Shown here: in pieces, positions 19,472 to 62,663 of the stretch | Layout: each line of letters starts with the position of its first letter | Position numbering within the stretch: position 1 is the stretch's first letter | Assembly: GCF_026626585.1 (NCBI RefSeq) | Contig: NZ_JAPNKD010000018.1 | Coordinates: 75,718-139,717, forward strand | DNA: 64,000 nt | DNA from: Nannocystis sp. ILAH1 | GTDB lineage: Bacteria > Myxococcota_A > Polyangia > Nannocystales > Nannocystaceae | Direction: 5' to 3' | The notes under the pieces: model-generated | Seen by the model: the letters and a program-made list of their open reading frames with translations, nothing else | The model's database searches: none | Told to the model about the DNA's origin: nothing | Position numbers and translations under genes: made by a program

Positions 19472-21184
19472 TCACGGGACGTGGACGACGACGTCGCTGA
19501 AGTACTGACTGGAGAGCGAATTGTCCTTGCAGATCGTGCCGCTGATCAGGTGTTCGCCCTGGTCGAAGACGATCTGCACGTCGTGGGTGTCGGGGTAGAC
19601 GACGATGCTCTCCGGCCCCGAGTCGGTCGGGAACGAGGTGATGTTCTGGACCAGCACCGGCGCCTGGTCGGCGACGCCGCTCCACTTGAAGAGGCGGTAC
19701 GGCCCCGCGGTGCCGTCCTTCGGCCCGCCGAGGATCAGCATCGCCGCGTGAATCGGAGACCACGCCATCCCGCGCACACGCAGGCCGCCGAGGTCGAGCA
19801 GGATCGCCTCGCCGAACTGCGCGACGGCGCCGTTCAGCGCTGCGTCGGCGTTGAGCAGCGTGACCAGGATCGCGTCGGTGCCTTGTAGCGGGTTGCGGAA
19901 GCCGATCACCAACTGCTTGGGGCGCTGTGCCGTGGGCAGCCAGGCGAGGCCCTCGATGTTGGCGCCGTTCACCTTGGGCGCGAGGTTGGCGTCGGTGGAC
20001 TTGCTCAGGTTGGCCGCGGTGCTGAGCGTCGCTATCACGCTCGCGTTCGGCGTCAGCCAGTTGGCGCTCTTGATCATGTCGTCGAGAAGCTTCGAGGTAT
20101 AGCCGACGGTCGTCAGCGACACGTTCGGTGCGGTCCCGGCGACGTCGACGGCGAAGAAGCGGTAGCGCATCCGCTCGAGCTTGCCGCTCTTGTCGCGCCC
20201 GTGCGAGCTGACGACGTAGATCCGGTCGCCGATCCGCGCCGCGTCCTCGAGGTCCGCTTCGTCGGAGCTCGACAGGCCGATGCTGGAGGACACGTCGAAG
20301 GTCTTGGCGGCGTTGGCGTCGGCGCCGCGCTGGTAGACTCGCAGGCCCTGGTTTTCGTCGTTGCCGTCGAGGAAGTAGGCGCCGTCGAGGGCGACGCCGA
20401 ACGAACCGTCGCAGCTCTGCTTGTATTTGCCGGGCGTCGGGTCGAGCACGACCTCGCCGCCGTCGTCACCGGTGGTGCCGCCCTCCTCGGCCTCGTGCCA
20501 GGTCACGCTCAGCTTGGGCCGCTTGGCCTTGGTGCCGTACTCGCTGGCGCGGAACTCGAGCCGATTGCTGGTACCCGCACCGTCGAGGAAAAAGCCGCGG
20601 TTCTTGCCCGGGTTCGCCACCCACTGCTGCACCAGCGCGACGCCGGCGGCGTTGAGGGAGAAGGTGACGGGGCCGGTGTCGGCCGCCGAGAACGAGCCGA
20701 GCGCGGCGGTCCCGCGGTCACTCACGCCGTAGCCGCCGGCCGTCTGCCAGCTGCTGCCGGTGTTCCACACCTTCCAGGTCGCGTTCGCCTCGTTCCACGC
20801 GCGCTTGGCCTCGTACAGCGAGAACGTCTCCGGGCTCTTGTCGGAGATCTCGAGGGTGATGCTGACCGACTCGACGACCGCGGTGGTCGGGATCGCGGCG
20901 CTCAGGTCCCACGACAGCAGCGCCAGGACCTCGGTGTCCGCCTCGACCGACAGGCTGGTATCGGCGCCGTTCTTGGCGGTGGGCGAGTCGCCGTCGAGCA
21001 TGGTGTCGCGAGTGCCGGCGTAGCTGCTGGTCGGCGCCTGGCCGTCCTGGAAGCTGACGGTCACCGGCCCGCCGGCGCGCGCGAACACGGCATCGTCGTC
21101 GCCGTCTTCGCAACCGTGTGACATGAACGCGAGCGCGCCGCTCGCAACGAGGGACAGGACATGAATGCAGCGAGTGTGATGCAT
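19472..21184 (-). CDS. secreted 570-aa protein. The N-terminal region resembles DNRLRE / carbohydrate-binding modules and the C-terminal region resembles phytase-like esterase beta-propellers (tentative).
   Basis: ATG at 21184. Hydrophobic N-terminus MHHTRCIHVLSLVASGALAF. Family assignment rests on recollection of motif patterns only. Confidence 0.6.
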   Translation of the reverse strand: MHHTRCIHVLSLVASGALAFMSHGCEDGDDDAVFARAGGPVTVSFQDGQAPTSSYAGTRDTMLDGDSPTAKNGADTSLSVEADTEVLALLSWDLSAAIPTTAVVESVSITLEISDKSPETFSLYEAKRAWNEANATWKVWNTGSSWQTAGGYGVSDRGTAALGSFSAADTGPVTFSLNAAGVALVQQWVANPGKNRGFFLDGAGTSNRLEFRASEYGTKAKRPKLSVTWHEAEEGGTTGDDGGEVVLDPTPGKYKQSCDGSFGVALDGAYFLDGNDENQGLRVYQRGADANAAKTFDVSSSIGLSSSDEADLEDAARIGDRIYVVSSHGRDKSGKLERMRYRFFAVDVAGTAPNVSLTTVGYTSKLLDDMIKSANWLTPNASVIATLSTAANLSKSTDANLAPKVNGANIEGLAWLPTAQRPKQLVIGFRNPLQGTDAILVTLLNADAALNGAVAQFGEAILLDLGGLRVRGMAWSPIHAAMLILGGPKDGTAGPYRLFKWSGVADQAPVLVQNITSFPTDSGPESIVVYPDTHDVQIVFDQGEHLISGTICKDNSLSSQYFSDVVVHVP

Positions 21185-21253: not shown

Positions 21254-21269
21254 GTGACATGTCGGTCAC
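21254..21269. repeat. GTGACATGTCGGTCAC palindrome containing the GACATGTC core, 70 bp upstream of the gene starting at 21184
   Basis: Direct reading. Confidence 0.55.
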
Positions 21270-21825: not shown

Positions 21826-22809
21826 ATGGGTTATTCTGGCCCCAGCATGGACGAGCGTTCGAGTGGCCCCGAGGACGCGTCGGCGACGGCGCTGGCGGAT
21901 GATTGGTCCGTCCTCCTGGCAGTGACCGAGCAGCTGAACGAGGCGACGGTCCGCGAAGCCACGCTGCAGGCATTCCTCCTGGCGGCGCCGCGGCGCGACG
22001 AGGCCGAGGTGGTGCTCTGCACCGTCGAGCACGACGCCGCCGACAAGCCGGAGTGGCTCTCGGTCGCGGTGGTCCGGCCAGCAGCGGTGCGGCCGGCACG
22101 GGCCCACGTCGGCGGCCGCTACCACCTCCCCGACATGCCGTTCTCACGGGTCTGGCTCGAGCAGCCGGGCGTGCCGGTGCTCGTCGGATCCGCCGCGACC
22201 GATCCGCGGATCGATCCGGTCCTGCGCGACATGTGGGCGGCCGCCGGCATCAAGGCGGCGCTGATGATCGCGTTGACCCTGCGCGGCCGCGTCGTCGGCG
22301 TGTTCTCGATACAGTGGAGCTGCGAGGTGCCGCTCGGCCCGCGGGAGCAGCGGATCTACCAGATCCTCTCGCGCAACGCGGCGCTGTTGCTCGAGAACAT
22401 GGTGATCGTCGATCGCCTGCAGGCCGCGCTGGCCGAGCGCAGCGCGCCGCTGATCCCGATCACCGACGACATCCTGGTCATGCCGCTGATCGGCACGCTC
22501 GACGAGACCCGCCGCGCGCGGATCCTCGAGGTGGCGCTGCAGGGGTCGTCCGCCGCGCGGGTCACGATCATCGACATCACCGGCGTCCCGTCGCTCGACG
22601 TCCACGCCGCCGCGCTCCTCACCAGCACCGCCCAGGCGCTGCGGCTGCTCGGCGTGCTCCCGATCCTGAGCGGCGTGCGTGCGGAGGTCGCCCGGGACCT
22701 GATGTCTTTCGGCGATGCGCTGACCGGCATCGTGACCTGCGGGACGCTCCAGGCCGGCGTCGAATACGCCCTGCGGCAGCTCGGCAAGTCGTATTCGCGC
22801 GCGATCTAG
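21826..22809 (+). CDS. GAF-STAS sensor protein
   Basis: ATG at 21826. A GAF-like middle region followed by a STAS block that is near-parallel to the 2845-4020 protein (APLIPITDDILVMPLIGTLD...IIDITG). Confidence 0.7.
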   Translation: MGYSGPSMDERSSGPEDASATALADDWSVLLAVTEQLNEATVREATLQAFLLAAPRRDEAEVVLCTVEHDAADKPEWLSVAVVRPAAVRPARAHVGGRYHLPDMPFSRVWLEQPGVPVLVGSAATDPRIDPVLRDMWAAAGIKAALMIALTLRGRVVGVFSIQWSCEVPLGPREQRIYQILSRNAALLLENMVIVDRLQAALAERSAPLIPITDDILVMPLIGTLDETRRARILEVALQGSSAARVTIIDITGVPSLDVHAAALLTSTAQALRLLGVLPILSGVRAEVARDLMSFGDALTGIVTCGTLQAGVEYALRQLGKSYSRAI

Positions 22810-22915: not shown

Positions 22916-23010
22916 GCTTTGGGCCGGCCGGGACTTTTTCAGCAACCTGCTAGCCCGGATTTCTCACCACGGCGAGGAATTCCGGCCGTACTTCCCGAGT
23001 TTGAGCGGGT

Positions 23011-24456
23011 GTGAAACAGGTGCTGGCCACCCAGGGGTACGGCCGGAACACGACAAGGTGTATCCGCGCCGAGTTCGATTTTCAACCTGCCGGGCGACGA
23101 CGCGTCGAAGCTGCGTTCGACGCCGGACGGGTCAGCTCGGACGGAGGTTTGCTGCTGCTGCGCGAGCTGACCAAAAGTTCAGGTGTGTTTCGAAGGTTCG
23201 CGTCCTGCTTTCGGGATCACCGCGACCCCAGCCGCATCGAGCACACCGTCGAGGAACTACTCGCGCAGCGCGTGCTGGGCCTGCTGTGCGGTTACGAGGA
23301 TTTGAACGACCACGACACACTCCGCGATGATGCCTTGCTCGCGCTGGCGGTCGGCAAGGCCGATCCGACCGGCGAGCAGCGCAAGCGGGAGCGCGACCGA
23401 GGTCACGCGCTGGCCGGCAAGAGCACGTTGAACCGCCTGGAGCTGGCGACGCCGCTCGTCGCTGGTGACGAGCGCTACAAGAAGATCAGCTACGACGACC
23501 ACGGCATCCAGCGCCTCTTCGTCGACACCTTCCTCGCCGCCCACGCTGAAGCACCAGCGGAGATTGTCCTCGATCTCGATGCGACCGACGACCCGGTACA
23601 CGGTCAGCAGGAAGGCCGTTTCTTTCACGGCTTCTATGACGGCTACTGCTACCTACCGCTGTACGTCTTCTGCGGCGACTTTCTCCTTGGCGCCGCGCTG
23701 AACACCGCCGACGAGCAGCCAGTCAGCCATGCAGTCGAGGAGCTCGAGCGGATCGTCGGTCAGATCCTCGCCCGCTGGCCCGATGTCCGGATCATCGTGC
23801 GGGGCGATTCCGGCTTCTGCCGCGACGAGGTCATGCGCTGGTGCGAAGACAACGGCCTCTTCTTCGTCCTGGGCCTGCAGAAGAACTCGCGCCTTGTCGC
23901 CGAGATCGAGGACGAGATGAACGAAGCCCGCGCCATCGCCGAGCGTACCGGCAAGAACGCTCGTGTATTCAAGGACTTCCGATACGAGACGAACCGGTCC
24001 TGGTCCTGTGAGCGTCGCGTGATCGGCAAGGCCGAGTACACGACCGACAAGGAGAACCCGCGCTTCGTCGCCACCAACCTGTCGTGCGACGAGTACGACG
24101 CCCGCGGCCTCTACGAGGACCTGTACTGCGCTCGCGGCGACATGGAGAATCGGATCAAGGAGCAGCAACTCGGCCTCTTCGCCGACCGCACCAGCGCGCA
24201 CACGCTGCGCGCCAACCAGCTCCGCCTCTGGCTCTCGTCCGTCGCCTACATGATCCTGAACGAGCTCCGCCGACTCGCACTCGTAGGCACCGAACTCGCG
24301 CACGCCCAGGTCTCCACGATCCGCACGCGGCTGCTCAAGATCGGTGCCATCGTCACGACCTCGGTCCGCCGCATCTACGTCTCCCTCAGCTCGGTCTTCC
24401 CCTTCCAGCACGTCTGGTGGAGAGCCCTCGACAACCTCCGCCCAGCTCACTCATGA
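23011..24456 (+). CDS. IS1380-family DDE transposase
   Basis: 481 aa. Blocks GGLLLLRELT, RDPSRIEHTVEELLAQRVLGLLCGYEDLNDHD and LDLDATDDPVHGQQEGRFFHGFYDGYCYLPLYVF match the IS1380 transposase family. Confidence 0.85.
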   Translation: MKQVLATQGYGRNTTRCIRAEFDFQPAGRRRVEAAFDAGRVSSDGGLLLLRELTKSSGVFRRFASCFRDHRDPSRIEHTVEELLAQRVLGLLCGYEDLNDHDTLRDDALLALAVGKADPTGEQRKRERDRGHALAGKSTLNRLELATPLVAGDERYKKISYDDHGIQRLFVDTFLAAHAEAPAEIVLDLDATDDPVHGQQEGRFFHGFYDGYCYLPLYVFCGDFLLGAALNTADEQPVSHAVEELERIVGQILARWPDVRIIVRGDSGFCRDEVMRWCEDNGLFFVLGLQKNSRLVAEIEDEMNEARAIAERTGKNARVFKDFRYETNRSWSCERRVIGKAEYTTDKENPRFVATNLSCDEYDARGLYEDLYCARGDMENRIKEQQLGLFADRTSAHTLRANQLRLWLSSVAYMILNELRRLALVGTELAHAQVSTIRTRLLKIGAIVTTSVRRIYVSLSSVFPFQHVWWRALDNLRPAHS

Positions 24457-24517
24457 GACGCTGACGGTCCTCGACAAATTCCTACCTGATGGTGCGCCTC
24501 CATCCGCGCAGGGACTC

Positions 24518-24547
24518 GTCTGTCCTCATGGACATGTCTTCCGGAAG
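24518..24547. repeat. palindromic element GTCTGTCCTCATGGACATGTCTTCCGGAAG inside the IS, within the unusually long 225-bp segment between the transposase stop and the right inverted repeat
   Basis: Direct reading. Confidence 0.6.
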
Positions 24548-24723
24548 GCGTCCGCCGGGCTTGTAGCCCATCATACAGCTCGATCTCGCGCGCTCGCCGG
24601 TATCACCTGCGGGCTCATGTGGGCGCCGTACGAGCGATCGGTGCCAGGGTCTGACGACGGCCGCTCGGCAGGCTCCGCTATCCGTGGTGAGAAATCCGGA
24701 CTAGGCCCGCGCCGCGGCTCGGT

Positions 24724-25629: not shown

Positions 25630-26116
25630 GCTCACGCAAACTATGGTCCGCAGCCCCGACGACCCTGTCAATGCCCGCCTGGGCGGCCTGATCGAGGCGT
25701 TCATGAACCGGGTCGCCCATCCTCGCGGGCGCGCGCTGGCGTTCTTGACCCGGTCGTCGGTCACCGTCGACCAGGCGATCCTCGTGAACCACGCGCTGGC
25801 CCGGCCCGGCAGCACCCCGACCAGCCTGGCGGCGACGATGAACCTGTCGCTGCCCTCGATCAGCCAGATGCTCGAGCGGCTGGCGCGGCTCGGCATGCTC
25901 CGGCGCACCGAAGACCCGGCCGATCGCCGACGCAAGACGATCGAGGTCACGCCGAAGGCGCGACGGTTCCTCCGCGAGCTGCAGGCGGTCCGCTCGCAGG
26001 AGTTCTCGGCCGGCGCGGCTGCCCTGTCGCCGGCCACGCAGCAGCGGCTCGTCGCGGCGCTCGAGCGAGCGCTGACCGAGCTCGACGCCGACCCATCCGG
26101 AGGAGAACCGCGATGA
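25619..26116 (+). CDS. MarR-family transcriptional regulator
   Basis: 165 aa. A winged-helix stretch SISQMLERLARLGMLRRTEDPADRRRKTIEVT is typical of MarR. Confidence 0.8.
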   Translation: MNHLLTQTMVRSPDDPVNARLGGLIEAFMNRVAHPRGRALAFLTRSSVTVDQAILVNHALARPGSTPTSLAATMNLSLPSISQMLERLARLGMLRRTEDPADRRRKTIEVTPKARRFLRELQAVRSQEFSAGAAALSPATQQRLVAALERALTELDADPSGGEPR

Positions 26117-32936: not shown

Positions 32937-33812
32937 GTGACCGATGTCCGATTGGAAGGACCGGACATTTCCGGAGCGACACTGACGCGCCGGCTTGAAC
33001 GATCGCCGTCGGCGCGCGACAGTACGTGGGTGCTGCACACGCTGAGCGCCACCGCCGCGACCTCTCCGCTCTCGCGCTTCATCGAGGACGTGCTCGTGCT
33101 CGTGCCGGCCGCCGGACGCGCGCGTTACGAGCGACTGCCCGACGGAAGGACGACGGTCGTGTTTCGCGTGCTCGAGGAGGGCCGCAGCGGCGATGTGTGC
33201 GTCGTCGGCCCGCGCATGCGCGCGCTGTTCAAGGACGGCGGCGGCGTCGCGCGGGCGATCGTCCTGCAGCTCAAGCCCGGCTGGTCGACGGCGCTGCTCG
33301 GCGTGGCAGCGAACGCGCTGACGGATCGGGTCGTGCCGCTGGAAGACATCTGGGGCCGCCCGGGCAGCGAGCTCTGCGACGCGCTGCTGGCGACGCGGAG
33401 CCTGCCGGAGGTGCTCGAGCGGGTGTCCAGCGCGATCGCGCTGCGGACGAGCGACAGCTTCGAGACGTCATCGGCACGGCTGGCGCGCCGCGCGGTTCAC
33501 CTGTTCGAAGCAGGCGAGGCCCGGGTGGAGCGCGTGGCGGAGCAGCTCGGCGTCACTGCGCGGCATCTTCGCCGCACCTTCACGGAGTGCGTCGGCATCG
33601 GCCCGAAGGACTTCGCGCGCACGGTCCGCCTGCGACGCGCGGTGCGGATGGCGGCGACGTCGAAGGACTGGGCGCGCATCGCCGCAGACGCGGGCTATTA
33701 CGACCAGGCGCACCTCATCACCGACTTTCGCGAGCTCGTCGGGCTGACGCCGGGCACCTTCCTCAAGCGTCGCGTCGACTCCGGTGAGGCGGAGGTCGGG
33801 CTCCGCGACTGA
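32937..33812 (+). CDS. AraC-family transcriptional regulator. The start is uncertain (GTG 32937 or GTG 33030).
   Basis: C-terminal HTH_AraC block (ARHLRRTFTECVGIGPKDFARTVRLRRAVRM). Divergent from the hydrolase. Confidence 0.7.
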   Translation: MTDVRLEGPDISGATLTRRLERSPSARDSTWVLHTLSATAATSPLSRFIEDVLVLVPAAGRARYERLPDGRTTVVFRVLEEGRSGDVCVVGPRMRALFKDGGGVARAIVLQLKPGWSTALLGVAANALTDRVVPLEDIWGRPGSELCDALLATRSLPEVLERVSSAIALRTSDSFETSSARLARRAVHLFEAGEARVERVAEQLGVTARHLRRTFTECVGIGPKDFARTVRLRRAVRMAATSKDWARIAADAGYYDQAHLITDFRELVGLTPGTFLKRRVDSGEAEVGLRD

Positions 33813-41825: not shown

Positions 41826-41954
41826 TCGCTCGCGCTCGAGACGGCGTCTCTCGCACCGGCCGGGCCGGTGCGACGAGCCCAGCCGGCGCGCGCGGCCGCA
41901 GGGACGCGCGCGCCGGAGTTGTCGGGCCGTGGAGGTCGGGCTAGCGTCTTGTCG

Positions 41955-42329
41955 ATGAAGTCCCTCGCCGATTACGAGCAGAAGTTCGACCGGCTCCACG
42001 AGGATTGTCCCGTCCGCGCCGCGCTCGACGTCATCCGCGGGCGCTGGAAGCCCTCGATCTTCTACGAGCTCAAGGACGGCCCGCGGCGCTTCTCGCAGCT
42101 GCAAGCGGCGCTCGCGGGCATCACCGCGCAGGCGCTGACGGTGCAGCTGCGCCAGCTCGAGGCCGACGCCGTGGTCGTCCGCACGGTACACGCGGACGAG
42201 AGCCCGCTGCGCGTCGAGTACGCGCTCAGCGAGTCGGGCAAGACGCTGTCGAGCGTGCTGGACCAGCTCGAGGTGTGGGGCGCGGCCTATATGGCGCGCC
42301 GCGGCACGACGCGATCACGCGTCGCCTGA
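41955..42329 (+). CDS. HxlR-family winged-helix transcriptional regulator
   Basis: CPVRAALDVIRGRWKPSIFYEL...GITAQALTVQLRQLE...RVEYALSESG. Confidence 0.8.
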   Translation: MKSLADYEQKFDRLHEDCPVRAALDVIRGRWKPSIFYELKDGPRRFSQLQAALAGITAQALTVQLRQLEADAVVVRTVHADESPLRVEYALSESGKTLSSVLDQLEVWGAAYMARRGTTRSRVA

Positions 42330-44251: not shown

Positions 44252-44415
44252 ATTGTGATGATATGTCCTTCAGGGCATGTCATCACAATGTCGCCCTTGT
44301 CGGAATGTCCGGATGACCTTCGGGACATTCCGGAATGGCCATGTCTCGCAGCGTCGCACACCGTCGTCACGGTGAGCCTGATGCTCTTTCAGTCATGCCT
44401 GATGGGGCATGTCCA
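44252..44415. repeat. cluster of three REP-like palindromic elements in a convergent spacer: 44252-44290 (ATTGTGATGA-TATGTCCTTCAGGGCATG-TCATCACAAT), 44301-44332 (CGGAATGTCC-N12-GGACATTCCG) and 44393-44415 (CATGCC-N6-GGCATGTCC)
   Basis: Direct reading. These are members of the GGACATGTCC-core family. Confidence 0.75.
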
Positions 44416-44427
44416 AAAGGTCACCTT

Positions 44428-45305: not shown

Positions 45306-45325
45306 AGATGTCCGAAGGGACATCT
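45306..45325. repeat. AGATGTCC-GAAG-GGACATCT palindrome in the divergent region between the MOSC gene and the Cache kinase
   Basis: Direct reading. Confidence 0.6.
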
Positions 45326-45576
45326 GGTGACAGGACCCGGGCGGGCGCCGCGGGGCCGCCGCGGTGCGCGAAATGACGCCGACCGCCGATGCGGACGCGG
45401 ATGTCGCGTCGCTGGCCCGATTGGCAGCATTTGCGTCGCGCATCGCTGCCCGCAATTGGGGCACGGCCCGTCTTCAGGCGTGGGATCCCGCGTGCGGTGA
45501 ATCGGGCGCAGGTGCGTTCATCGGGCCTGCTCCGAGCCTGCGGCGGCGGTCGCCGCGCCCGCCACGCGGGGCGGTC

Positions 45577-50688: not shown

Positions 50689-50766
50689 GAGGACATGTCC
50701 CGAGAAGAAGGTTCAAACGGACATGTCCTGGGCGGCATGTCGAGGTGAACATGCCCTGAAGGACAG
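50689..50766. repeat. three REP-like elements in a convergent spacer: GGACATGTCC (50691-50700), GGACATGTCC (50719-50728) and GGCATGT-N8-ACATGCC (50734-50755)
   Basis: Direct reading. Confidence 0.8.
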
Positions 50767-53189: not shown

Positions 53190-55545
53190 GCGCCGGGCCG
53201 CGCTGGCGCTGCTGCTGACGCTCGCCTGCGTCCCGCGCGGGCCGACGACCGCGGAGCCAGGTGCCCCCAAGGACATGTCCTTGGAGACATCCGGTGCGGC
53301 GGCGGTGGCGGCCTGCGACAAGCAGGCGAGCGCGGTCCAGGACGGGCTGGTGCGCCTCGCCGATCGCTACCTCTGGGAAGAGATCGAGCTGCTGGTCCAG
53401 GCCCACGCGGCGACCCGCGGCCGGCCCGACGCGACCCGCTGCGCCGAGGCGACCCGCGCAGCGCTGACGACCGTGACGCTGCGCTGGGCCGAGCAGGGGG
53501 CCGAGTCGGGCGGGTCGCAGAGCCACGCGCTGGCCCGCCAGGCCTACGCGGCGCTGCGCAAGCACTTCCCCGCCGAGGCCGAGGCGCCGCTGCTGCACCA
53601 CGCGATGGGCAAGCTCGAGTGGGCCCGCGCCGAGCGGCTGACGCTCGAGATCGGCGAGCGCACCTTGACCGACGAGGCGCTGCGCGAGGCCCACGCCCAC
53701 CACCGCGCCGCCCTGGCCGGCGGCCTGCCGACCGAGCAGGCCGCCCGCTCGGCCCGCGCCCAGCTCGACGCGGTCCGGCGCGTGCGCGAGGGGGAGCCTG
53801 CTCCATGGGTCATGTCTGAACAGACATGTTTGCCGGATCCGCGGGGCCGCTGCACCGACCCCGTCCCGCGCGTCGCCCCCGGCGAGATGACGGCCGGCGA
53901 CCGCGAGTGGCTGGCCGCCTACGACGCCTTCCTCGCCGAGCCCGGGCTGCAGGGCACGCCCGAGGCCGGGCAGGTCGCGGTCGAGCGGGCCGAGCTGCTG
54001 ATGCGATACCGCCGCTGGGACGAGGCCGAGACCAGCCTGAGCGCCGTCAGCGGGCCGGCGCGCGAGCAGGCGCGGGTGCTGCTGGTCGGCCTGCTGCTGG
54101 CGCGCTGGATGGAGGCCGCCAGCGCCGGCGAGCGCTCGGCCGCCCGCGTCGCCCTGGTCACCGTGGCCGTCGAGGTCGAGGCCGCCGGCGGGCCGCAGGT
54201 GGCCCAGGTGGCGGCGCTGCGGCGCGCGGCGCTGTGGGCCCAGGCCGAGGAGTCGGAGGCGGTCGGTGACGACGCCCGCTGCGGCGCGGCCTTCGAGGGG
54301 CTCTACGCCGACCTCGGCGCCGACATCCACGCGGCTGCCGAGGCGGCCGACGGCGCCGGTCGCTGCTACGAGCGCGCCGGCCTGACGCAGAAGGCGATCG
54401 ACTGGCTCGAGCGCATGGCCGACGTCCACCGCGAGGACCCGCGGGCCCCCGACGCGGTGCTGCGGCTGGCCCGCTTGCACGAGCGGATCTTGAACGACGA
54501 GCAGGCCCGCGATCGCTACCTCGATCTGGTGGCCCGCGCCCCGCGGCACCGCGCCGCAGCGACCGCTCGCCGCCGCTCGCTGATCCTGAGCCTGCGCGCC
54601 GGGACATTGCCCGAAGGACAGCTCGACGCGCTGATCCGCGGCCGCCCGGAGGAGCGCACGCTGGCGGCGGCGATCCAGTTCCGCGCGGTGTTCCGCCCCG
54701 GCGTCACGCCCGAGGCGGCCGAGAAGTACATCGAGCGGTTCGGCAAGGAGGGCGGGCCGCGGCGGCTGGCCATCGCCCACGCGCGCGCGGCCGAGGCGTG
54801 GCTGCGGGCGTCCTGCCCGGTCCCCGGGGCCGAGGGCCTGTGCGTCGAATTCGGCCGCGACCGCACGCCGGCGCGGGTGATCGCCCGCCTGCCCAAGCCG
54901 CACGCCAAGGGCCGCGAGCACCTCGACCGCGCGCAGAAGCTGTTGCCCGAGGTCAGCGGCGGCGAGGTCGACAAGCTCGAGGCGCCGATCGCCGTCGACG
55001 CCGAGGAGGCGCGGACCGCCAGCCGCCAGGTCGCGCTGCTGCAGGGCGACCTCGACGCCGAGTCGGCGCTCACCAGCCAGCCGCCGAAGAGCCTCGACCC
55101 GGCCCGCTCGCGCGCGTGGCTCGAGGTCCGCAAGGCCGAGGTCGAGCGCATGAGCGCGGTCTACGAGACCGCGATCGCGGGCGGGGCCGGCGGCCGCGAT
55201 CAGTCGGCGGCGCTGGTCGAGACCCGCAAGGCGCAGGTGTACGAGTCCGACCTGGCGCTGCTCGACGAGGTGGCCGCCGCCGTCGAGGCCGCCGGCGACG
55301 CCGGCCTGGCCCAGCAGATGCGCGAGCTGGCAGCCCAGCGCCGCGAGGCGGTGTTCACGGCCTACGCCCGCTGCCTCGACCACGTGGCCGCGTGGGGCCA
55401 CGACGCCGGAGGCCAGAGCGCCCTGTGCCGTGCAGGCCTCGGCCGCCTGGTCGGTCGCTACGAGGAGCCGCTGGAGTACGCGCCCGACCACGACGGACGG
55501 GTGATCGTCGGCGCGGCTGCGAGAGCGTCGGGCCCACCGCGATGA
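53176..55545 (+). CDS. large Ala-rich, alpha-helical (TPR-like) lipoprotein
   Basis: ATG at 53176 overlaps the kinase 3' end. MARRERRAALALLLTLAC lipobox. 790 aa. Confidence 0.65.
53267..53284. repeat. perfect 18-bp palindrome CCAAGGACATGTCCTTGG inside the lipoprotein ORF (encodes PKDMSL)
   Basis: Direct reading. Confidence 0.7.
53811..53828. repeat. CATGTCTG-AA-CAGACATG palindrome inside the same ORF (encodes VMSEQTC)
   Basis: Direct reading. Confidence 0.6.
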
Positions 55546-55702: not shown

Positions 55703-55790
55703 GAGACATGCCTGAAAGACCATGTCGAATCGGGCATGTCGAATCGAGCATGACGATCAAGACATGTCCATCGGGACATGGCCGAGAAGA
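55703..55790. repeat. composite REP-like cluster in a convergent spacer: GACATGCC...GACCATGTC, direct repeat CATGTCGAATCG x2 (55721-55732 and 55735-55746), and CATGTCC-ATCG-GGACATG (55763-55780)
   Basis: Direct reading. Confidence 0.75.
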
Positions 55791-56908: not shown

Positions 56909-57068
56909 GGAGCGGGGAGGATATCAGTGTGGCGCGAAGTTCTCCACGAAGCGGAGGCGTCGAGGCCGGCCGCGGACCACCAGGTCGACGGCGCCGTAGA
57001 ACCATGCTTCGCCGCTCACGAGGCCGCAGCCTGACGACGAGGGGAGCATTGGAGCACCGCCCGGCCTG

Positions 57069-57392
57069 CTACGATCGATCGCGGTCCAGACGGTCCAGGT
57101 CCACGTCCGAGCGTCGTGCCGAGAGGGCATGGCGTTCCCGCCACTCTTGCATGCACCGCCAGCACCCCAGGCGGTCGAGCTCGTGGTGCCGCCGCATCAC
57201 GGTCTCGTCGCGCGCGCCGGTCGCCAGCGCCCGCTCGAACAGGGCCTCGCACTCGCGGCAGATCCACACCCGGAAGAGCAACTCCGCCTCGATCAGGTCG
57301 ATCGGGCGGTCCTCCTCGCGCGCGGCGAAGACGTGAGCGCAGGCGCCGAGCGTCCCGCATTGGCCGTGCCTCTCGCAACGAATCGAGCCCAT
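57069..57392 (-). CDS. small Cys-rich (probable zinc-binding) protein, 107 aa
   Basis: ATG at 57392. Seven Cys in CxxxxxC, CxxC and CxxC arrangement (MGSIRCERHGQCGTLGAC...CREC...CWRC). Confidence 0.5.
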   Translation of the reverse strand: MGSIRCERHGQCGTLGACAHVFAAREEDRPIDLIEAELLFRVWICRECEALFERALATGARDETVMRRHHELDRLGCWRCMQEWRERHALSARRSDVDLDRLDRDRS

Positions 57393-57504
57393 GGCCGCGA
57401 GCTTGCCCCGTCGAGCTCGCCAGGTCCAGCCCCCTCGTGGCGCGAGCGGGAGCCGCAGGACGCCCGCGCCCGCGAAGAGCTCTCGCCGCGACTGCCGGAA
57501 CGAA

Positions 57505-57536
57505 AATGTCCTTTGGGCCATGTCATGACATTGCCA
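57505..57536. repeat. AATGTCC-TTTG-GGCCATGTCATGACATTGCC palindromic element in a divergent promoter region
   Basis: Direct reading. The inner 12 bp ATGTCATGACAT form a perfect palindrome. Confidence 0.65.
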
Positions 57537-57659
57537 TCGATTCGCCGCCTCCCGCGCCGGCGGCCGCCCCGCCGTGAGCAGAGGCCGATCTGCAGTGAAT
57601 GTCGACAGTCTGAATAGGCGGATCCAACGCGCGTCCGTGAGCACCGAGGTTTTTAAAAA

Positions 57660-58157
57660 ATGCACAAGATCATCCTGACCCTGTTGGCGCTCCTCTTCAG
57701 CGTGACCGGTTGCAGCCTCACGCTCTCGTCGCACGGCGGTTGGGGGTCGGACGGCCCCGCGCCGCGGATGGCCAGCCGCGGTTACGGCTGGGGCTCCGCG
57801 GGCGACCCGGGCCTGCACGGCCGCGGCAAGCCGGCCCGTCGTGTCGACGCCAGCGAGCGCCCCGCGACGAAGCCGGCCGGCGCAGTGCCGCAGAAGGCGA
57901 AGCAGCCGGCGATCACGTGGGCGGGCGAGGTGCCGCAGAAGGCGAAGAAGCCGGCGAGCACGTGGGCGGGCGAGGTGCCGAAGAAGGCGAAGCAGCCGGC
58001 GATCACGTGGGCGGGCGAGGTGCCGAAGAAGGCGAAGCAGCCGGCGATCACGTGGGCCGGGAAGGTGCCGCCGAAGCGGGCGAAGCAGCCGAGCAAGCCC
58101 GCCGGCAAGCGGCCGGCGATCACGTGGGCCGGCACGGTCCCGCCGCGCCCGCAATGA
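57660..58157 (+). CDS. lipoprotein with four tandem 14-aa repeats (KAKQPAITWAGEVP)
   Basis: GAGG before the ATG. MHKIILTLLALLFSVTGC lipobox. 42-nt DNA repeats over about 57890-58070. Confidence 0.7.
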   Translation: MHKIILTLLALLFSVTGCSLTLSSHGGWGSDGPAPRMASRGYGWGSAGDPGLHGRGKPARRVDASERPATKPAGAVPQKAKQPAITWAGEVPQKAKKPASTWAGEVPKKAKQPAITWAGEVPKKAKQPAITWAGKVPPKRAKQPSKPAGKRPAITWAGTVPPRPQ

Positions 58158-58202
58158 GGTCGAGCAGGCGCGGCTTTCGAGGCGCACGCCGAACCTGCTC
58201 AC

Positions 58203-58236
58203 ACGGCCATGTCCATGAGGACATGGCCGTTTTTGT
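58203..58236 (+). terminator. rho-independent terminator built from a palindromic family member: ACGGCCATGTCC-ATGA-GGACATGGCCGT (12-bp perfect stem) followed by TTTTTG
   Basis: It starts 46 nt after the stop at 58157. Confidence 0.75.
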
Positions 58237-58274
58237 GCGCTCGCGACGGCGGGCCGCGCCGGCGCCTGGCCAAA

Positions 58275-58288
58275 CGGACATGTCCTCG
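58275..58288. repeat. GGACATGTCC palindrome (58276-58285) in the same convergent spacer
   Basis: Direct reading. Confidence 0.7.
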
Positions 58289-58347
58289 CGGACCGGCGCG
58301 GCCCGGCGCGGCCCGTGCCTCGCGCAGCAGAAGGCGGCCCCGCACAG

Positions 58348-59436
58348 TCAGGGCGTGAAGGTCTCGCAGGCCGCGTCGACGACGGTCGTCAGCGCCTCTG
58401 CGAAGGCGTCGCCGATCGGGTCGGCGCCGCGCTTCTTGCACATCGATCGGTACATGCCGCGCGCGCCGAACGTCCCGGCGACCTCGCGCAGCACCTCGGA
58501 GTCCTTGACCTCGCCGCCGCCGTAGGCGTTGTCGCAGCCGCCCTCGTCGCCGCCGATGCCGAGGAACACCACGCGCTCCGCGTCGCCCTTGGCGGCGACG
58601 ATGGCGTCGTGGATCTCCGCGGCGTCGTCGGGGCCGACCAGCGACTCGTCCTCGTCGGTGATCGCGACCACCAGCAGCACCGAGTCGGCGCGCGAGAACC
58701 CGGCGTTGACCGCGACTCCCGGATCGAGCGCCTTGGCGGCGGTCCAGGCCGGCTGCTCGTCCTCGTCGTCGGCGTCGCTGCAGGTGTCGGGGATCGACGC
58801 GTAGCCGCCGTTGTCGCCGCCCTTGCCCTCCAGCGCCTCGTCCTGGAACGGCAGCTGGACCACGCAGGCGAAGTTCTGCGCGATCGTCGGGTCGTCGGAG
58901 GCCAGCCAGTTGCGGCCGCCGGGGAACTGGCAGTCGGTGTCGCCGGCGCCGTAGTTGTGGAAGTGCGGCGGCTTCGGGCAGGCGTTGATGACTGCGACGT
59001 GGAAGTCGTCGATGCCCTCGCCGACCTCGAGCGCCAGAGTCGCCTGGATCTCCGCGAACGTCGCCGGCAACGAGGCGAGCGCGTCCGCCATGGTCGCCGA
59101 GGCGTCGACGACCAGCAGCACGTCGACCTTGGTACACGCCGCGACGATGTCCGGCAGGTCGGGCCCCGGCGAGGTCGTGGTCGACGAGTCGTCGGCTGCC
59201 GACGAGTCGTCGCCGCTGGTGGTCGTCGGCGCGGTGCCGGTGGTCTCGCCGGCGCTGGCGCTGCCGTCGGTCGGTGGCTGAGTGCTCGGGCCGCCGCTCG
59301 TGGTCGTGGTCGCGCTCGCAGTGGCGCTGGTCAGGCCGCTGGCGAAGCCGCCGGTGTCGGAGTCGTCGCCGCCGGCGCAGGCGGTCAGAAGAATGATATG
59401 TCCGAAGAGACAGGCGAGTCGAGCTGCGCTCCGCAT
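58348..59436 (-). CDS. von Willebrand factor A (vWA) domain lipoprotein
   Basis: MRSAARLACLFGHIILLTAC lipobox. Thr-rich linker. A DASATMAD stretch and an overall vWA-like fold pattern. Confidence 0.65.
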   Translation of the reverse strand: MRSAARLACLFGHIILLTACAGGDDSDTGGFASGLTSATASATTTTSGGPSTQPPTDGSASAGETTGTAPTTTSGDDSSAADDSSTTTSPGPDLPDIVAACTKVDVLLVVDASATMADALASLPATFAEIQATLALEVGEGIDDFHVAVINACPKPPHFHNYGAGDTDCQFPGGRNWLASDDPTIAQNFACVVQLPFQDEALEGKGGDNGGYASIPDTCSDADDEDEQPAWTAAKALDPGVAVNAGFSRADSVLLVVAITDEDESLVGPDDAAEIHDAIVAAKGDAERVVFLGIGGDEGGCDNAYGGGEVKDSEVLREVAGTFGARGMYRSMCKKRGADPIGDAFAEALTTVVDAACETFTP

Positions 59437-59504: not shown

Positions 59505-60407
59505 TCACGCATCGATCGGCTGCGGATCCCAGGCCGCCAGGGCCCGGTAGAAGACCTCCGGATCGAGCAGCGGCGGCAGGCCGGCGACCTGGCCGTCGCC
59601 GAGCTCGATCGCGGTCCAACCTCCCGCTGCACGCTCGGCGAGGTCGAGGCTGAAGAAGCGGCTCGGCACGCGGCGCGCGAGGTCGGCGAACTCCGGCGGC
59701 ACAGCCGAGTCGGCGATCTCCCACGCCGGCGCCTCGACGAGCGCGCGCCCATCGGCGATGAAGCGCCGCCATTCGCGGGGCAGGGGCATCCCGCTCCTCG
59801 GGTGGTTCCCGAGCGGCACCAGCGGCTCGTAGGCGCGGAAGATCAGGCCGCCGACGAGGTCGTCGCCCTGGCGCTCGATGAAGTTGCCGACCACGCGACG
59901 GACCTGGGCGATGTCGTCGGCGGCGCGGATGAAGCACGCGTCATTCCACTCGTGCTTGCGCGACTTGACGTAGTCCTTGACGACGAGCGCACGCCCGCCG
60001 AAGCGCGCCAGAGCGGCCGCGATCTGTGTCTCTTGCAGGCCGTCCTCGCGTGGCAGCACGACTGTCTCCGGCGTGTCGTCGCCGAGGTGCGGCAGCGCGG
60101 CGGGCAGCAGGTGGGCGCTGCGATAGGCCGCGGGGTCGTTGACGAGCTGCAGGCCGCGCGCGCCGAGCCCGGCGTGCAGCGCGTCGTAGGCCGCCGGCGG
60201 CAACATCCAGCCGCGGTAGACAGCGACCTCGAGGGCCTCGCTCGCCTGCACCCGGCGCAGCGCAGCGCCGACGTCTCCCGCGACCAGGGCCTCGAAGTCG
60301 ACGCACGACCACGCGATGCCGACCGCGTCGGCGGCCGCGACCTCGGGCGCGAACGCGCGATCGGGGCGGCGCTCGAGCAGCGGGTCGGTGCAGAACAGTA
60401 CGCGCAT
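59505..60407 (-). CDS. ATP-grasp-like domain protein (tentative)
   Basis: 300 aa, ATG at 60407. It lies divergent to vgrG. Confidence 0.5.
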   Translation of the reverse strand: MRVLFCTDPLLERRPDRAFAPEVAAADAVGIAWSCVDFEALVAGDVGAALRRVQASEALEVAVYRGWMLPPAAYDALHAGLGARGLQLVNDPAAYRSAHLLPAALPHLGDDTPETVVLPREDGLQETQIAAALARFGGRALVVKDYVKSRKHEWNDACFIRAADDIAQVRRVVGNFIERQGDDLVGGLIFRAYEPLVPLGNHPRSGMPLPREWRRFIADGRALVEAPAWEIADSAVPPEFADLARRVPSRFFSLDLAERAAGGWTAIELGDGQVAGLPPLLDPEVFYRALAAWDPQPIDA

Positions 60408-60506
60408 GCGGGCATCCTAGCGGGCGTCGGCGCGCGCGGCAGGACCTGCCGTCGCGGGCCTGTGCGCGACATCGGCCGGCAACAGCCAGTACACCGCTCT
60501 GTTACG

Positions 60507-62663
60507 ATGGCGCGTCCGGGGGGTGGAAGGGGTTTGATCGCCAACTTGGTCTCGGCGCTGACGGGCAACGCGGCGCTGTTCACGTTCACCGCCTCCGCCG
60601 GCGATCTCGAAGTGGTCCGCTTCGCTGGCTTCGAGGCGGTCTCGTCGCTGTTCGAGCTGCGCATCGAGCTCGCGGGTCCCGAGATCGACCTCGCGGCGCT
60701 GGTCGACAAGCCGGCGCTGCTGACGATCGGTGGCGTCGAGTCGCCGCGCCAGATCCACGGCCTCGTATGCGGCGCCGAGTACAGCGGCGAGCTGCGCCAG
60801 CACCACATCTACGAGGTGACCTTCGTGCCGCGGGTGTGGCGGCTGACGCGGCGCCAGGACAGCCGGATCTTCCAGCGCAAGACGACGCAGACGATCGTCG
60901 GCGAGGTGCTCGAGAAGGCCGGGATCCCGCGCGACTGGTTCCGCTTCGACCTGTTCTCCTCGTACAACCCGCGCGACTACTGCGTGCAGTACCGCGAGTC
61001 GGACTGGGACTTCGTCAGCCGGCTGCTCGAGGAGGACGGCATCTACTATTACTTCGAGCACAGCGCCGAGAAGCACGTGCTCGTGATGAGCGACAAGCCC
61101 GGCGCGCCGGCGATCGCGGGGCCGCAGGAGGTGTGGTGGGCCCCCCCGCACGGGTTCGTGCGCGGACAGGAGCACATCACCCGCTTCCGCCTGCTCGAGG
61201 GCGTGCGCACCGGCAAGTCCGCGCTGCGCGACCACAACCTTCACAAGCCCGACCAGCAGATGGACGCCAGCGAGTCGGCGCAGCTGGCCACCGACCTCGA
61301 GGTCTACGACTTCCCCGGCGAGTACCAGGTCAGCGGCGGGCGCAGCTCCGACCAGGGCGCCGGCCTGGCGAAGATCCGTCTCGAGGCGATGCAGCACGAC
61401 CGCCGCCGCGGCCTCGGCGAGAGTGATTGCCCGCGGCTCGTGCCCGGCTACTCGTTCACGCAGGCCGGCCACCAGCGCGGCGACCTCGACGGCGATTACA
61501 AGCTGCTGCGCGTCGAGCACAAGGGCGAGCAGTCGCAGGTGCTCGAGCAGGACGCCGGCACCGAGTTCTCCTACAACAACAGCTTCGTGTGCATCGAGGC
61601 CAAGACGCCGTACCGGCCGCCGCGCGTGACCCCGCGGCCCGCGGTGAGAGGCGTGCAGACGGCCACCGTGGTCGGCCCGCCCAACGAGGAGATCTACGTC
61701 GACGAGCACGCGCGGGTGAAGGTGCAGTTCCACTGGGACCGCAGCGACAAGTTCAGCGAGGATTCGTCGTGTTGGGTCCGCGTCAGCCAGCTGTGGGCCG
61801 GCAACTCGTGGGGCGCGATGTTCATCCCGCGGATCGGCCACGAGGTGCTGGTCGACTTCATCGAGGGCGACCCCGACCGCCCGGTGATCGTCGGCCGGAT
61901 CTACCACGGCCTCAACCTGCCGCCGTACCCGCTGCCGGAGCAGAAGACCAAGAGCACCATCAAGTCGGACACCTACCAGGGGGCCGGCTACAACGAGCTG
62001 CGCTTCGAGGACCAGAAGGGGATCGAGCAGATCTTCATGCACGCGCAGCGCAACATGGACATCCGCGTCCTGCACGACCGGATGGAGAGCGTGCTGCACA
62101 ACCGCCACCTGACCGTCGGCAGCAACGACGGCGGGGCCAAGATCGGCGACTACTACGAGAACATCTGGCGCGACCACCACTGGCGCATCGATCGCAACCG
62201 CAACGAGCACGTCGGCGGCGACCTGCGGATCCGTGTCGGCGGCATCGACGGCGTCGGCCACGTCGACACCATCATCGAGGGCAACCGCCGCGAGCTGGTG
62301 ATGCAGAGCCAGAGCCTCGAGATCAAGGCCGACCTCAAGATCAAGATCGGCGGCGGCCACCACGAGCAGGTCTTGGGCGACGTCCACCGCAAGGTCACGG
62401 GCCTGTTGTCGGTCGAGGCGCTCAAGGAGGTCCACTACAAGTCGTCCAAGGTCGTGATCGAGGCGTCGCAGGGGCTGACCGTCCGCGGCCCCGGCGGCTT
62501 CATCACCATTCACGCCGGCGGCATCGACATCGTTGGCACTCTGGTGAAGATCAACAGCGGCGGCTCGGCGCTCACCGGTACGGCCGCCGGCCCGCAGAAC
62601 CCCGACGAGGCCAAGCCCGTCGAGCCCACCAAGCCCGACCCGGCCGACAGCGGCGGCATCTGA
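60507..62663 (+). CDS. vgrG: type VI secretion spike protein VgrG (TssI)
   Basis: 718 aa. The N-terminus (...AALFTFTASAGDLEVVRFAGFEAVSSLFELRIEL) and the gp27/gp5-like core (RVSQLWAGNSWGAMFIPRIGHEVLVDFIEGDPDRPVIVG) are characteristic of VgrG. Confidence 0.9.
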   Translation: MARPGGGRGLIANLVSALTGNAALFTFTASAGDLEVVRFAGFEAVSSLFELRIELAGPEIDLAALVDKPALLTIGGVESPRQIHGLVCGAEYSGELRQHHIYEVTFVPRVWRLTRRQDSRIFQRKTTQTIVGEVLEKAGIPRDWFRFDLFSSYNPRDYCVQYRESDWDFVSRLLEEDGIYYYFEHSAEKHVLVMSDKPGAPAIAGPQEVWWAPPHGFVRGQEHITRFRLLEGVRTGKSALRDHNLHKPDQQMDASESAQLATDLEVYDFPGEYQVSGGRSSDQGAGLAKIRLEAMQHDRRRGLGESDCPRLVPGYSFTQAGHQRGDLDGDYKLLRVEHKGEQSQVLEQDAGTEFSYNNSFVCIEAKTPYRPPRVTPRPAVRGVQTATVVGPPNEEIYVDEHARVKVQFHWDRSDKFSEDSSCWVRVSQLWAGNSWGAMFIPRIGHEVLVDFIEGDPDRPVIVGRIYHGLNLPPYPLPEQKTKSTIKSDTYQGAGYNELRFEDQKGIEQIFMHAQRNMDIRVLHDRMESVLHNRHLTVGSNDGGAKIGDYYENIWRDHHWRIDRNRNEHVGGDLRIRVGGIDGVGHVDTIIEGNRRELVMQSQSLEIKADLKIKIGGGHHEQVLGDVHRKVTGLLSVEALKEVHYKSSKVVIEASQGLTVRGPGGFITIHAGGIDIVGTLVKINSGGSALTGTAAGPQNPDEAKPVEPTKPDPADSGGI

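Follow-up and report, generated by a model that had tools for sequence, protein, structure and literature searches.

Do the palindromes that lie in the promoter regions of Nannocystis sp. ILAH1 serve as operators, or do they belong to a REP-like family of repeats? An earlier note on the DNA analyzed here (64,000 nucleotides in full, hereafter the window) described three such palindromes, at 57505-57536, 45306-45325, and 21254-21269, and argued that their positions fit transcription-factor operators better than REP elements, so that the family might be heterogeneous or one DNA-binding protein might recognize all copies. To place these elements, gene context was derived from codon-bias gene calls, Pfam, and the annotation of near-identical genomes. 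The G+C content of the window is ~70%, and its proteins are 100% identical to database proteins named from Nannocystis sp. RBIL2 and ILAH1. A further two genomes of the genus, L111 and L112, show 95–97% identity to the window over 39–62 kb. For the promoter elements, orthologous loci were taken from N. punicea, N. exedens, N. bainbridge, Nannocystis sp. SCPEA4, and one metagenomic relative. The abundance of the family was assessed in a 207-kb sample of Nannocystis DNA, fetched via protein homologues and not selected for arrays, and a genome collection with one genome per species was scanned with a query of five CATGs at a 14-bp period.

Conserved palindromes in three 5' regions

Direct reading of the sequence established that the three palindromes exist as described, and the gene calls, Pfam matches, and annotation bore out the gene context that the earlier note had given for each. 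Element 1 (57505-57536, unstranded, AATGTCCTTTGGGCCATGTCATGACATTGCCA) is located between a minus-strand Cys-rich ORF (start 57392) and a plus-strand lipoprotein gene (start 57660). It is composed of an imperfect 16-bp palindrome, ATGTCC-TTTG-GGCCAT, at 57506-57521, and an overlapping perfect 12-bp palindrome, ATGTCATGACAT, at 57520-57531. Element 1 is found at the equivalent place in L111, L112, N. exedens, N. punicea, and Nannocystis sp. SCPEA4. The 16-bp palindrome reads ATGT-CCTTTGGG-CCAT in the window, with the right end being ACAT in L111, L112, N. exedens, and N. punicea, while the 12-bp palindrome is broken in the close strain L112.

Element 1 forms the 5' edge of a conserved block of ~125 nt that reaches the lipoprotein start codon. 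The non-coding block proper (57537-57659, plus strand) contains long invariant stretches and is almost invariant in six Nannocystis genomes, and it holds TGAATA (57611-57616), CGTCCG (57632-57637), and a GAGG ribosome-binding site. The TGAATA...CGTCCG pair resembles an ECF-sigma-type promoter and, on its consensus alone, is assigned as a possible one; a sigma-70 consensus scan of 57000-58400 found no promoter. A structured-RNA reading of the conserved leader (57496-57662) was rejected, the RNAalifold covariation term being +1.86, and an Rfam scan of the entire window returned no family at the gathering score. The Cys-rich ORF (57069-57392) carries several CxxC pairs without a Pfam match. In N. 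punicea and N. exedens, conservation of the ORF is confined to its C-terminal half and the genes called are shorter (69–75 aa), and the L111 orthologue is also called shorter than the window ORF; the start at 57392 is therefore putative. In L112, the left flank of element 1 is replaced, the Cys-rich ORF included, and a 12-bp tandem expansion, GCGAATCGCCGC, is present in 3–4 copies directly beside element 1 (orthologous to window 57536-57550).

Element 2 (45306-45325, unstranded) is a perfect palindrome, AGATGTCC-GAAG-GGACATCT, of which 45308-45323 reads ATGT-CCGAAGGG-ACAT. It lies 45 bp upstream of the MOSC gene start (45261), in the divergent region shared with a Cache histidine kinase gene that starts at 45364 or, as in its orthologues, at ~45610. 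The outer C and G of both CATGs are missing and element 2 is still fully conserved, which favors the 16-bp ATGTCC-N4-GGACAT as a functional unit.

Element 3 (21254-21269, unstranded) reads GTGAC-ATGTCG-GTCAC and contains one family-like core, GACATGTC. The gene 70 bp downstream of it (19472-21184) encodes a DUF3616 protein and starts at 21184. Since the arms of element 3 (GTGAC/GTCAC) differ from those of the other two and a third conserved GTGAC lies further upstream, element 3 is set apart and is probably the operator of a different regulator, merely containing ACATGT. A coding start at the ATG at 21259, inside element 3, was also considered and rejected, as the first ~190 codons resemble out-of-frame high-GC sequence. 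Pfam domains are located at residues 279-481 and none in those first ~190 codons, so that a start near 21826 is most likely.

Comparison of the orthologous regions revealed that all three elements show the generic feature of an operator, a conserved footprint 5' of orthologous genes. Invariant columns make up 16/16 of element 3 in four genomes, compared with 74/260 (28%) elsewhere in the region; 20/20 of element 2 in the window, L111, L112, and N. punicea, compared with 231/328 (70%); and 18/32 of element 1 in six genomes, compared with 9/112 (8%) on its left.

A CATG array family with an exact 14-bp period

Analysis of the window indicated that elements 1 and 2 resemble a much larger family, whose unit, nnGGR-CATG-YCCnn, is itself palindromic and is arranged head to tail in arrays with an exact 14-bp period. 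Copies of ATGTC and GACAT are numerous in the window and fall into clusters. The 4-nt spacer of the arrays favors GAAN/NTTC, and CATG is followed by T in only about half of the units. CATG pairs in the window occur 15 times at 14 bp, 9 times at 28 bp, 6 times at 42 bp, and 4 times at 56 bp, compared with 0–3 times at each other distance up to 60 bp; block shuffles of the window gave 0.44 pairs at 14 bp (maximum 3 in 300 shuffles). The 207-kb sample contains 87 CATG pairs at 14 bp compared with a mean of 2.4 at other distances, and among all 256 tetramers at distances of 8–24 bp, CATG and its overlapping tetramers gave the sole strong periodic signal. Chained units reach ~670 per Mb in this sample. 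Each pair of neighboring array units gives rise to the same 16-bp palindrome, ATGTCC-N4-GGACAT, and the relaxed pattern ATGN[CT]C-N4-G[GA]NCAT, which elements 1 and 2 fit, occurs 42 times in 148 kb compared with well under one copy expected from base frequencies. Terminal units match the consensus equally well in their outer and inner flanks, and the array ends fade into one-mismatch cores. No correlation of flank quality was found for either the 16-bp site or the 10-bp GGRCATGYCC unit (r of 0.03 and 0.01, respectively).

The genome-collection scan returned at least 110 matching tiles. Among the matches listed, the 28 tiles with variable linkers all came from five Nannocystis species, while each of the ~80 tiles from outside Nannocystis was a simple microsatellite of 7 or 14 bp. 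In a distant Nannocystaceae MAG (L122), two candidate pairs occur in 21 kb. No description of a 14-bp-phased CATG array family was found in the literature searched; the family is seemingly undescribed, and it is very abundant and genus-wide.

Some related repeats were also observed. Higher-order tandem repeats of family units occur in N. pusilla (L064 7720-7990), where the copies are 71–72 bp long with three CATG cores each, and in the STK/790-aa intergenic region of SCPEA4 (L121), where copies of ~95 bp each carry GGRCATGTCCGTGAAGCC. Phage contigs of ~46% G+C (L154 4520-4630, L134, L163, L165, and L132) contain (A/G)AT(T/A)CATG direct repeats phased at 14 bp, whose 6-nt linkers vary, in contrast to the microsatellite matches. 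Seven of these phage units lie in L154 within a non-coding region of ~1 kb upstream of a terminase large subunit gene and may represent a packaging (pac/small-terminase) site. A reading of the CATG pattern as restriction avoidance was rejected, for CATG is undepleted in genes (observed/expected of 1.16). A separate observation concerns CTAG, which is nearly missing in genes, with 13 observed and 171 expected occurrences in 288 kb of Nannocystis DNA (ratio of 0.08).

Arrays are concentrated at the 3' ends of genes

The position of the arrays was assessed with CATG pairs at 14 bp in the 207-kb sample. Convergent intergenic regions contain 6.4 pairs/kb (a pair in 19/28 regions of at least 60 bp), co-directional ones 1.7 pairs/kb (10/58), and divergent ones 0.09 pairs/kb (1/28), while genes contain 0.04 pairs/kb. 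The density of exact units in convergent 3' regions is thus ~70 times that in divergent regions, a contrast indicating that the family is a 3'-end element and that promoter copies are a rare exception. Arrays begin 5–40 bp past the stop codon of the upstream gene, and those in convergent regions often extend to within ~20 bp of the opposite stop.

The window provides several examples, all without an assigned strand unless stated. An array of five CATG cores at the 14-bp period (595-654) lies between convergent genes with stops at 565 and 728, and its first two units form a terminator-like 14-bp stem followed by TTTTT (593-627). A cluster of degenerate units (44257-44416, with cores at 44262, 44276, 44340, 44394, and 44408) is located in the convergent region of the S1-P1 nuclease and MOSC genes. 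Between convergent DUF3089 and GNAT genes, the former unrelated to DUF3616, four cores and one decayed unit in register form the array at 50694-50753; in L111 and L112, its CATGs are unchanged but its linkers differ. Six cores at the 14-bp period (55707-55780) lie between the convergent 790-aa and TPR genes, and N. exedens, N. punicea, and SCPEA4 likewise carry arrays at the orthologous site. Downstream of the lipoprotein gene, a two-unit hairpin, ACGGCCATGTCC-ATGA-GGACATGGCCGT, with a 12-bp stem is followed by TTTTT (58203-58235, plus strand); it is identical in L111 and L112, is conserved in N. exedens, N. punicea, and SCPEA4, and on its sequence is an intrinsic-terminator-like end of that gene. 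A single strong unit, acGGACATGTCCtc (58274-58287), lies near the stop of the convergent 362-aa gene, where other species carry arrays of 2–3 units at the orthologous positions.

Individual units are also found in other settings. Two strong ones lie within the coding region of the 790-aa protein (53272-53290 and 53811-53828), of which the former, GGACATGTCC, is read as Asp-Met-Ser and is conserved in five species. An insertion sequence at 22952-24700, with CTAG on either side, encodes a DDE_Tnp_1_4 transposase (23011-24456) and is bounded by terminal inverted repeats of ~22 bp (CCGGATTTCTCACCACGG...) at ~22955 and 24699; a family unit, GGACATGTCT (24531-24540), lies inside it, 77 bp past the transposase stop. 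Beyond the lipoprotein and 362-aa region, the window holds a type VI secretion cargo island (59505-62663) with VgrG, PAAR, DUF4123, Imm71/72, and Tle1-like lipase genes, which adjoins an R2K gene; comparison with the orthologous loci L120 and L121 revealed that its content varies among Nannocystis species.

Double-stranded sites or RNA hairpins

Comparison of the window with L111 and L112 revealed 0/112 substitutions in array CATGs, while the flanks and spacers diverge by ~19%, other intergenic DNA by 12–14%, and third codon positions by 6%. Across species, orthologous arrays keep the CATGs and the register alone, with linkers that are unalignable; this is seen between N. radixulma and N. exedens, between N. 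punicea and N. radixulma, and at the 790-aa/TPR and lipoprotein/362-aa regions in N. exedens, N. punicea, and SCPEA4. The arrays nevertheless turn over, as units are gained or lost at their ends and an array present in one species is missing in another (L058 compared with L080).

Folding analysis offered a different explanation. As RNA, either strand of the arrays folds far better than shuffled sequence (z of -2.8 to -5.7), and a stem between two neighboring units can reach 10 bp. The entire family, the promoter copies included, might then consist of REP-like RNA stem-loops that act in bidirectional termination or in protection of mRNA 3' ends, with the promoter copies being stray members or 5'-UTR hairpins that lack an operator role. 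The location of the arrays just past stop codons, where they fill convergent regions, is consistent with this explanation, as are the textbook stems with T runs at 58203-58235 and 593-627, the former conserved across species. Element 2 also forms a stable hairpin with an 8-bp stem (-18.2 kcal/mol, z of -2.1), and a 5'-UTR hairpin could explain its conservation equally well.

Several observations on base pairing and spacing argue against the hairpins as the conserved entity. Pairing between neighboring units shows no covariation beyond the prediction from column frequencies (0.41 compared with 0.37, 0.56 with 0.51, and 0.59 with 0.51), and only 41–54% of the three flanking pairs are Watson-Crick. 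Sense-strand G-U pairs do not exceed A-C in co-directional regions (24 compared with 24), and a T4 run is found in 0/13 arrays of those regions. Units keep strictly to a 14-bp spacing and hardly ever lie 13 or 15 bp apart, which argues against hairpin loops, and stem-loops give no reason for an invariant CATG while the other stem bases drift. A C>G skew of the kind seen in Rho utilization was also sought on the sense strand of the arrays and was absent (217 C and 198 G). The retention of CATG and register with free linkers, no covariation, and no strand bias thus suggests double-stranded DNA read by a protein rather than RNA hairpins.

Two of the promoter-side elements also fit poorly with hairpins. 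Shuffled sequence folds at least as well as elements 1 and 3 (z of +0.6 to +1.5), and in the 57506 palindrome no covariation was found, position 4 being unpaired in 4/6 species without a compensating change. Because elements 1 and 3 give no fold signal and the mismatches of element 1 are uncompensated, they are better read as double-stranded binding sites. In addition, none of the three promoter elements has an upstream gene to terminate. We therefore regard RNA stem-loops as a somewhat unlikely explanation for the family as a whole, and the strong folds of the arrays, two of them with T runs, leave room for an RNA-level role at 3' ends.

The abundance and turnover of the units would also suit selfish, REP- or MITE-like DNA that a dedicated enzyme spreads or maintains, for example a transposase of the RAYT type or an activity that nicks or methylates CATG specifically; 3' ends would accumulate harmless insertions, and the promoter copies would be tolerated or secondarily exapted. 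The very high copy number, the near exclusion of units from genes and promoters, the origin of the variable-linker arrays from Nannocystis only among the scan matches listed, the gain and loss of arrays and end units, the higher-order expansions in L064 and SCPEA4, and the unit within an insertion sequence are in line with such an origin. However, arrays persist at orthologous positions with only CATG and register retained, which points to continuing constraint rather than recent spread, and the promoter copies are individually invariant or strongly conserved. The arrays also bear no GTAG/CGTC tag, terminal inverted repeats, or target duplications, and no associated transposase or RAYT was seen among the window genes scanned, making this origin quite improbable. 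That the three promoter palindromes are unrelated chance palindromes resembling the family is extremely improbable, since, although palindromes with 5- to 8-bp arms are expected a few times per 64 kb and the arms of element 3 are unlike those of elements 1 and 2, orthologous regions show strong or complete conservation of all three, and for elements 1 and 2 this conservation and the excess of the pattern that they match refute chance.

A possible model for recognition at promoters and gene ends

From the elements observed here and from the period, position, and conservation pattern of the family, we infer protein binding, a single protein in both contexts, and a role of the arrays. The preferred reading is that one abundant dimeric DNA-binding protein binds isolated sites at a few promoters and a series of overlapping ones in the gene-end arrays, a proposal whose chances we judge to be evenly balanced. 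Such a protein would recognize ATG/CAT cores 14 bp apart, and successive 16-bp sites would overlap by the central AT of CATG; this 2-bp overlap would account for both the 14-bp period and the invariant CATG. The single ATGTCC-N4-GGACAT site at a few promoters (45306 and 57506) would act as an operator, while arrays at gene ends would punctuate transcription units as a roadblock, an insulator, or an architectural element. Against this reading, operator function alone does not account for the ~99% of units that lie at 3' ends. The regulators encoded in the window are MarR (25643-26116), AraC (33030-33812), and HxlR (~41949-42329, from the L111 annotation) proteins, and no PadR- or CRP-family gene was found among the ~35 window proteins scanned. 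A more specific version, in which an abundant, lineage-specific protein coats the CATG arrays after most convergent and many co-directional genes as a roadblock or insulator that terminates or delimits transcription units, and acts as a classical regulator at a few promoters such as 45306 and 57506, appears unlikely.

With regard to the original question, the data partly support the view that the three palindromes are conserved operator-type protein-binding sites on double-stranded DNA in 5' regions. The preference of the earlier note for operators over REP elements is partly upheld by the 5' intergenic positions, by the footprints in 4–6 Nannocystis genomes, and by the missing fold signal of elements 1 and 3; it does not extend to the family, for which a promoter position is the exception. 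Its suggestion of a heterogeneous family agrees with the distinct arms of element 3. Its other suggestion, one protein for all copies, could explain elements 1 and 2 together with the arrays through ATGYCC-N4-GGRCAT but probably not element 3. The promoter sites are candidate operators for the MOSC/sensor-kinase pair, the lipoprotein gene, and the secreted DUF3616 protein.

If a protein reads the arrays, they would represent a new way to mark the ends of transcription units in a bacterium with a 12-Mb genome of 72% G+C, and they would offer thousands of natural binding sites for the identification of that protein. Even as hairpins or selfish DNA, the pattern would be unusual, because conservation across species is limited to a tetranucleotide and an exact 14-bp phase, and the arrays provide a directly testable case for the old question of how REP-like elements function. 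In annotation, they can serve as reliable marks of gene 3' ends in Nannocystis.

Comparison with known repeat and operator systems

Among known systems, the CATG family is closest to the REP/BIME elements of enterobacteria, which include IHF-binding (RIB/RIP) and gyrase-binding BIME classes (PMC2817692, PMC3733652). Like REP/BIME, it is extragenic, palindromic, lineage-specific, present in hundreds to thousands of copies, and arranged in regularly spaced clusters, which are found mainly where transcription units end and in the gaps between convergent genes; the densities in convergent regions and genes (6.4 and 0.04 pairs/kb) and the restriction to Nannocystis among the matches listed reflect these features. 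The tag and the architecture are different. Instead of the GTAG/CGTC end tag of REP, the only conserved tetranucleotide is CATG, at the unit center, and the unit is 14 bp long rather than 20–40 nt, palindromic in itself, and repeated head to tail at one exact period, with the 4-bp core as the only part conserved. In Escherichia coli, IHF binds REP clusters as well as promoters.

The promoter-side copies resemble the operators of PadR-family regulators, which carry an inverted ATGT/ACAT motif with a spacer of 8–10 nt (PMC3506622). The 16-bp palindrome ATGTCC-N4-GGACAT is equivalent to ATGT-N8-ACAT, and elements 1 and 2 are single conserved copies of it in promoter regions. A PadR regulator is usually encoded beside its target, unlike the situation in the window, where neither a PadR nor a CRP gene is among the scanned proteins; the likeness is therefore a lead rather than a sign of membership. 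PadR operators are not known to form overlapping sites by the thousands at the ends of genes.

Some species-specific repeats also serve as terminators, including the paired DNA uptake sequences of Neisseria and Haemophilus and the TRIT motif of Mycobacterium tuberculosis. Both these repeats and the CATG units are enriched, lineage-specific motifs that fold into hairpins past the ends of genes, frequently where two genes converge. In contrast to CATG units, uptake sequences lack symmetry and are frequent within genes, and we know of none of these repeats that shows a phased tandem array with a conserved tetranucleotide.

In their geometry, the arrays are comparable to the cooperatively bound tandem palindromic operator arrays of MetJ (met boxes, 8-bp units) and of the omega protein (heptads). 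By analogy, both would combine short palindromic or alternately oriented units with a fixed period and two dyads per period. The MetJ and omega arrays differ in that they are promoter operators or plasmid centromeres, with 2–10 units at a handful of loci, rather than a family spread genome-wide over 3' ends. A protein following the helix in the manner of MetJ or omega would advance by 120 degrees for each 14-bp step, so that three units would span four turns. If a protein does coat the arrays at gene ends, the system would be a bacterial counterpart of the Reb1/TTF-I or mTERF terminator arrays.
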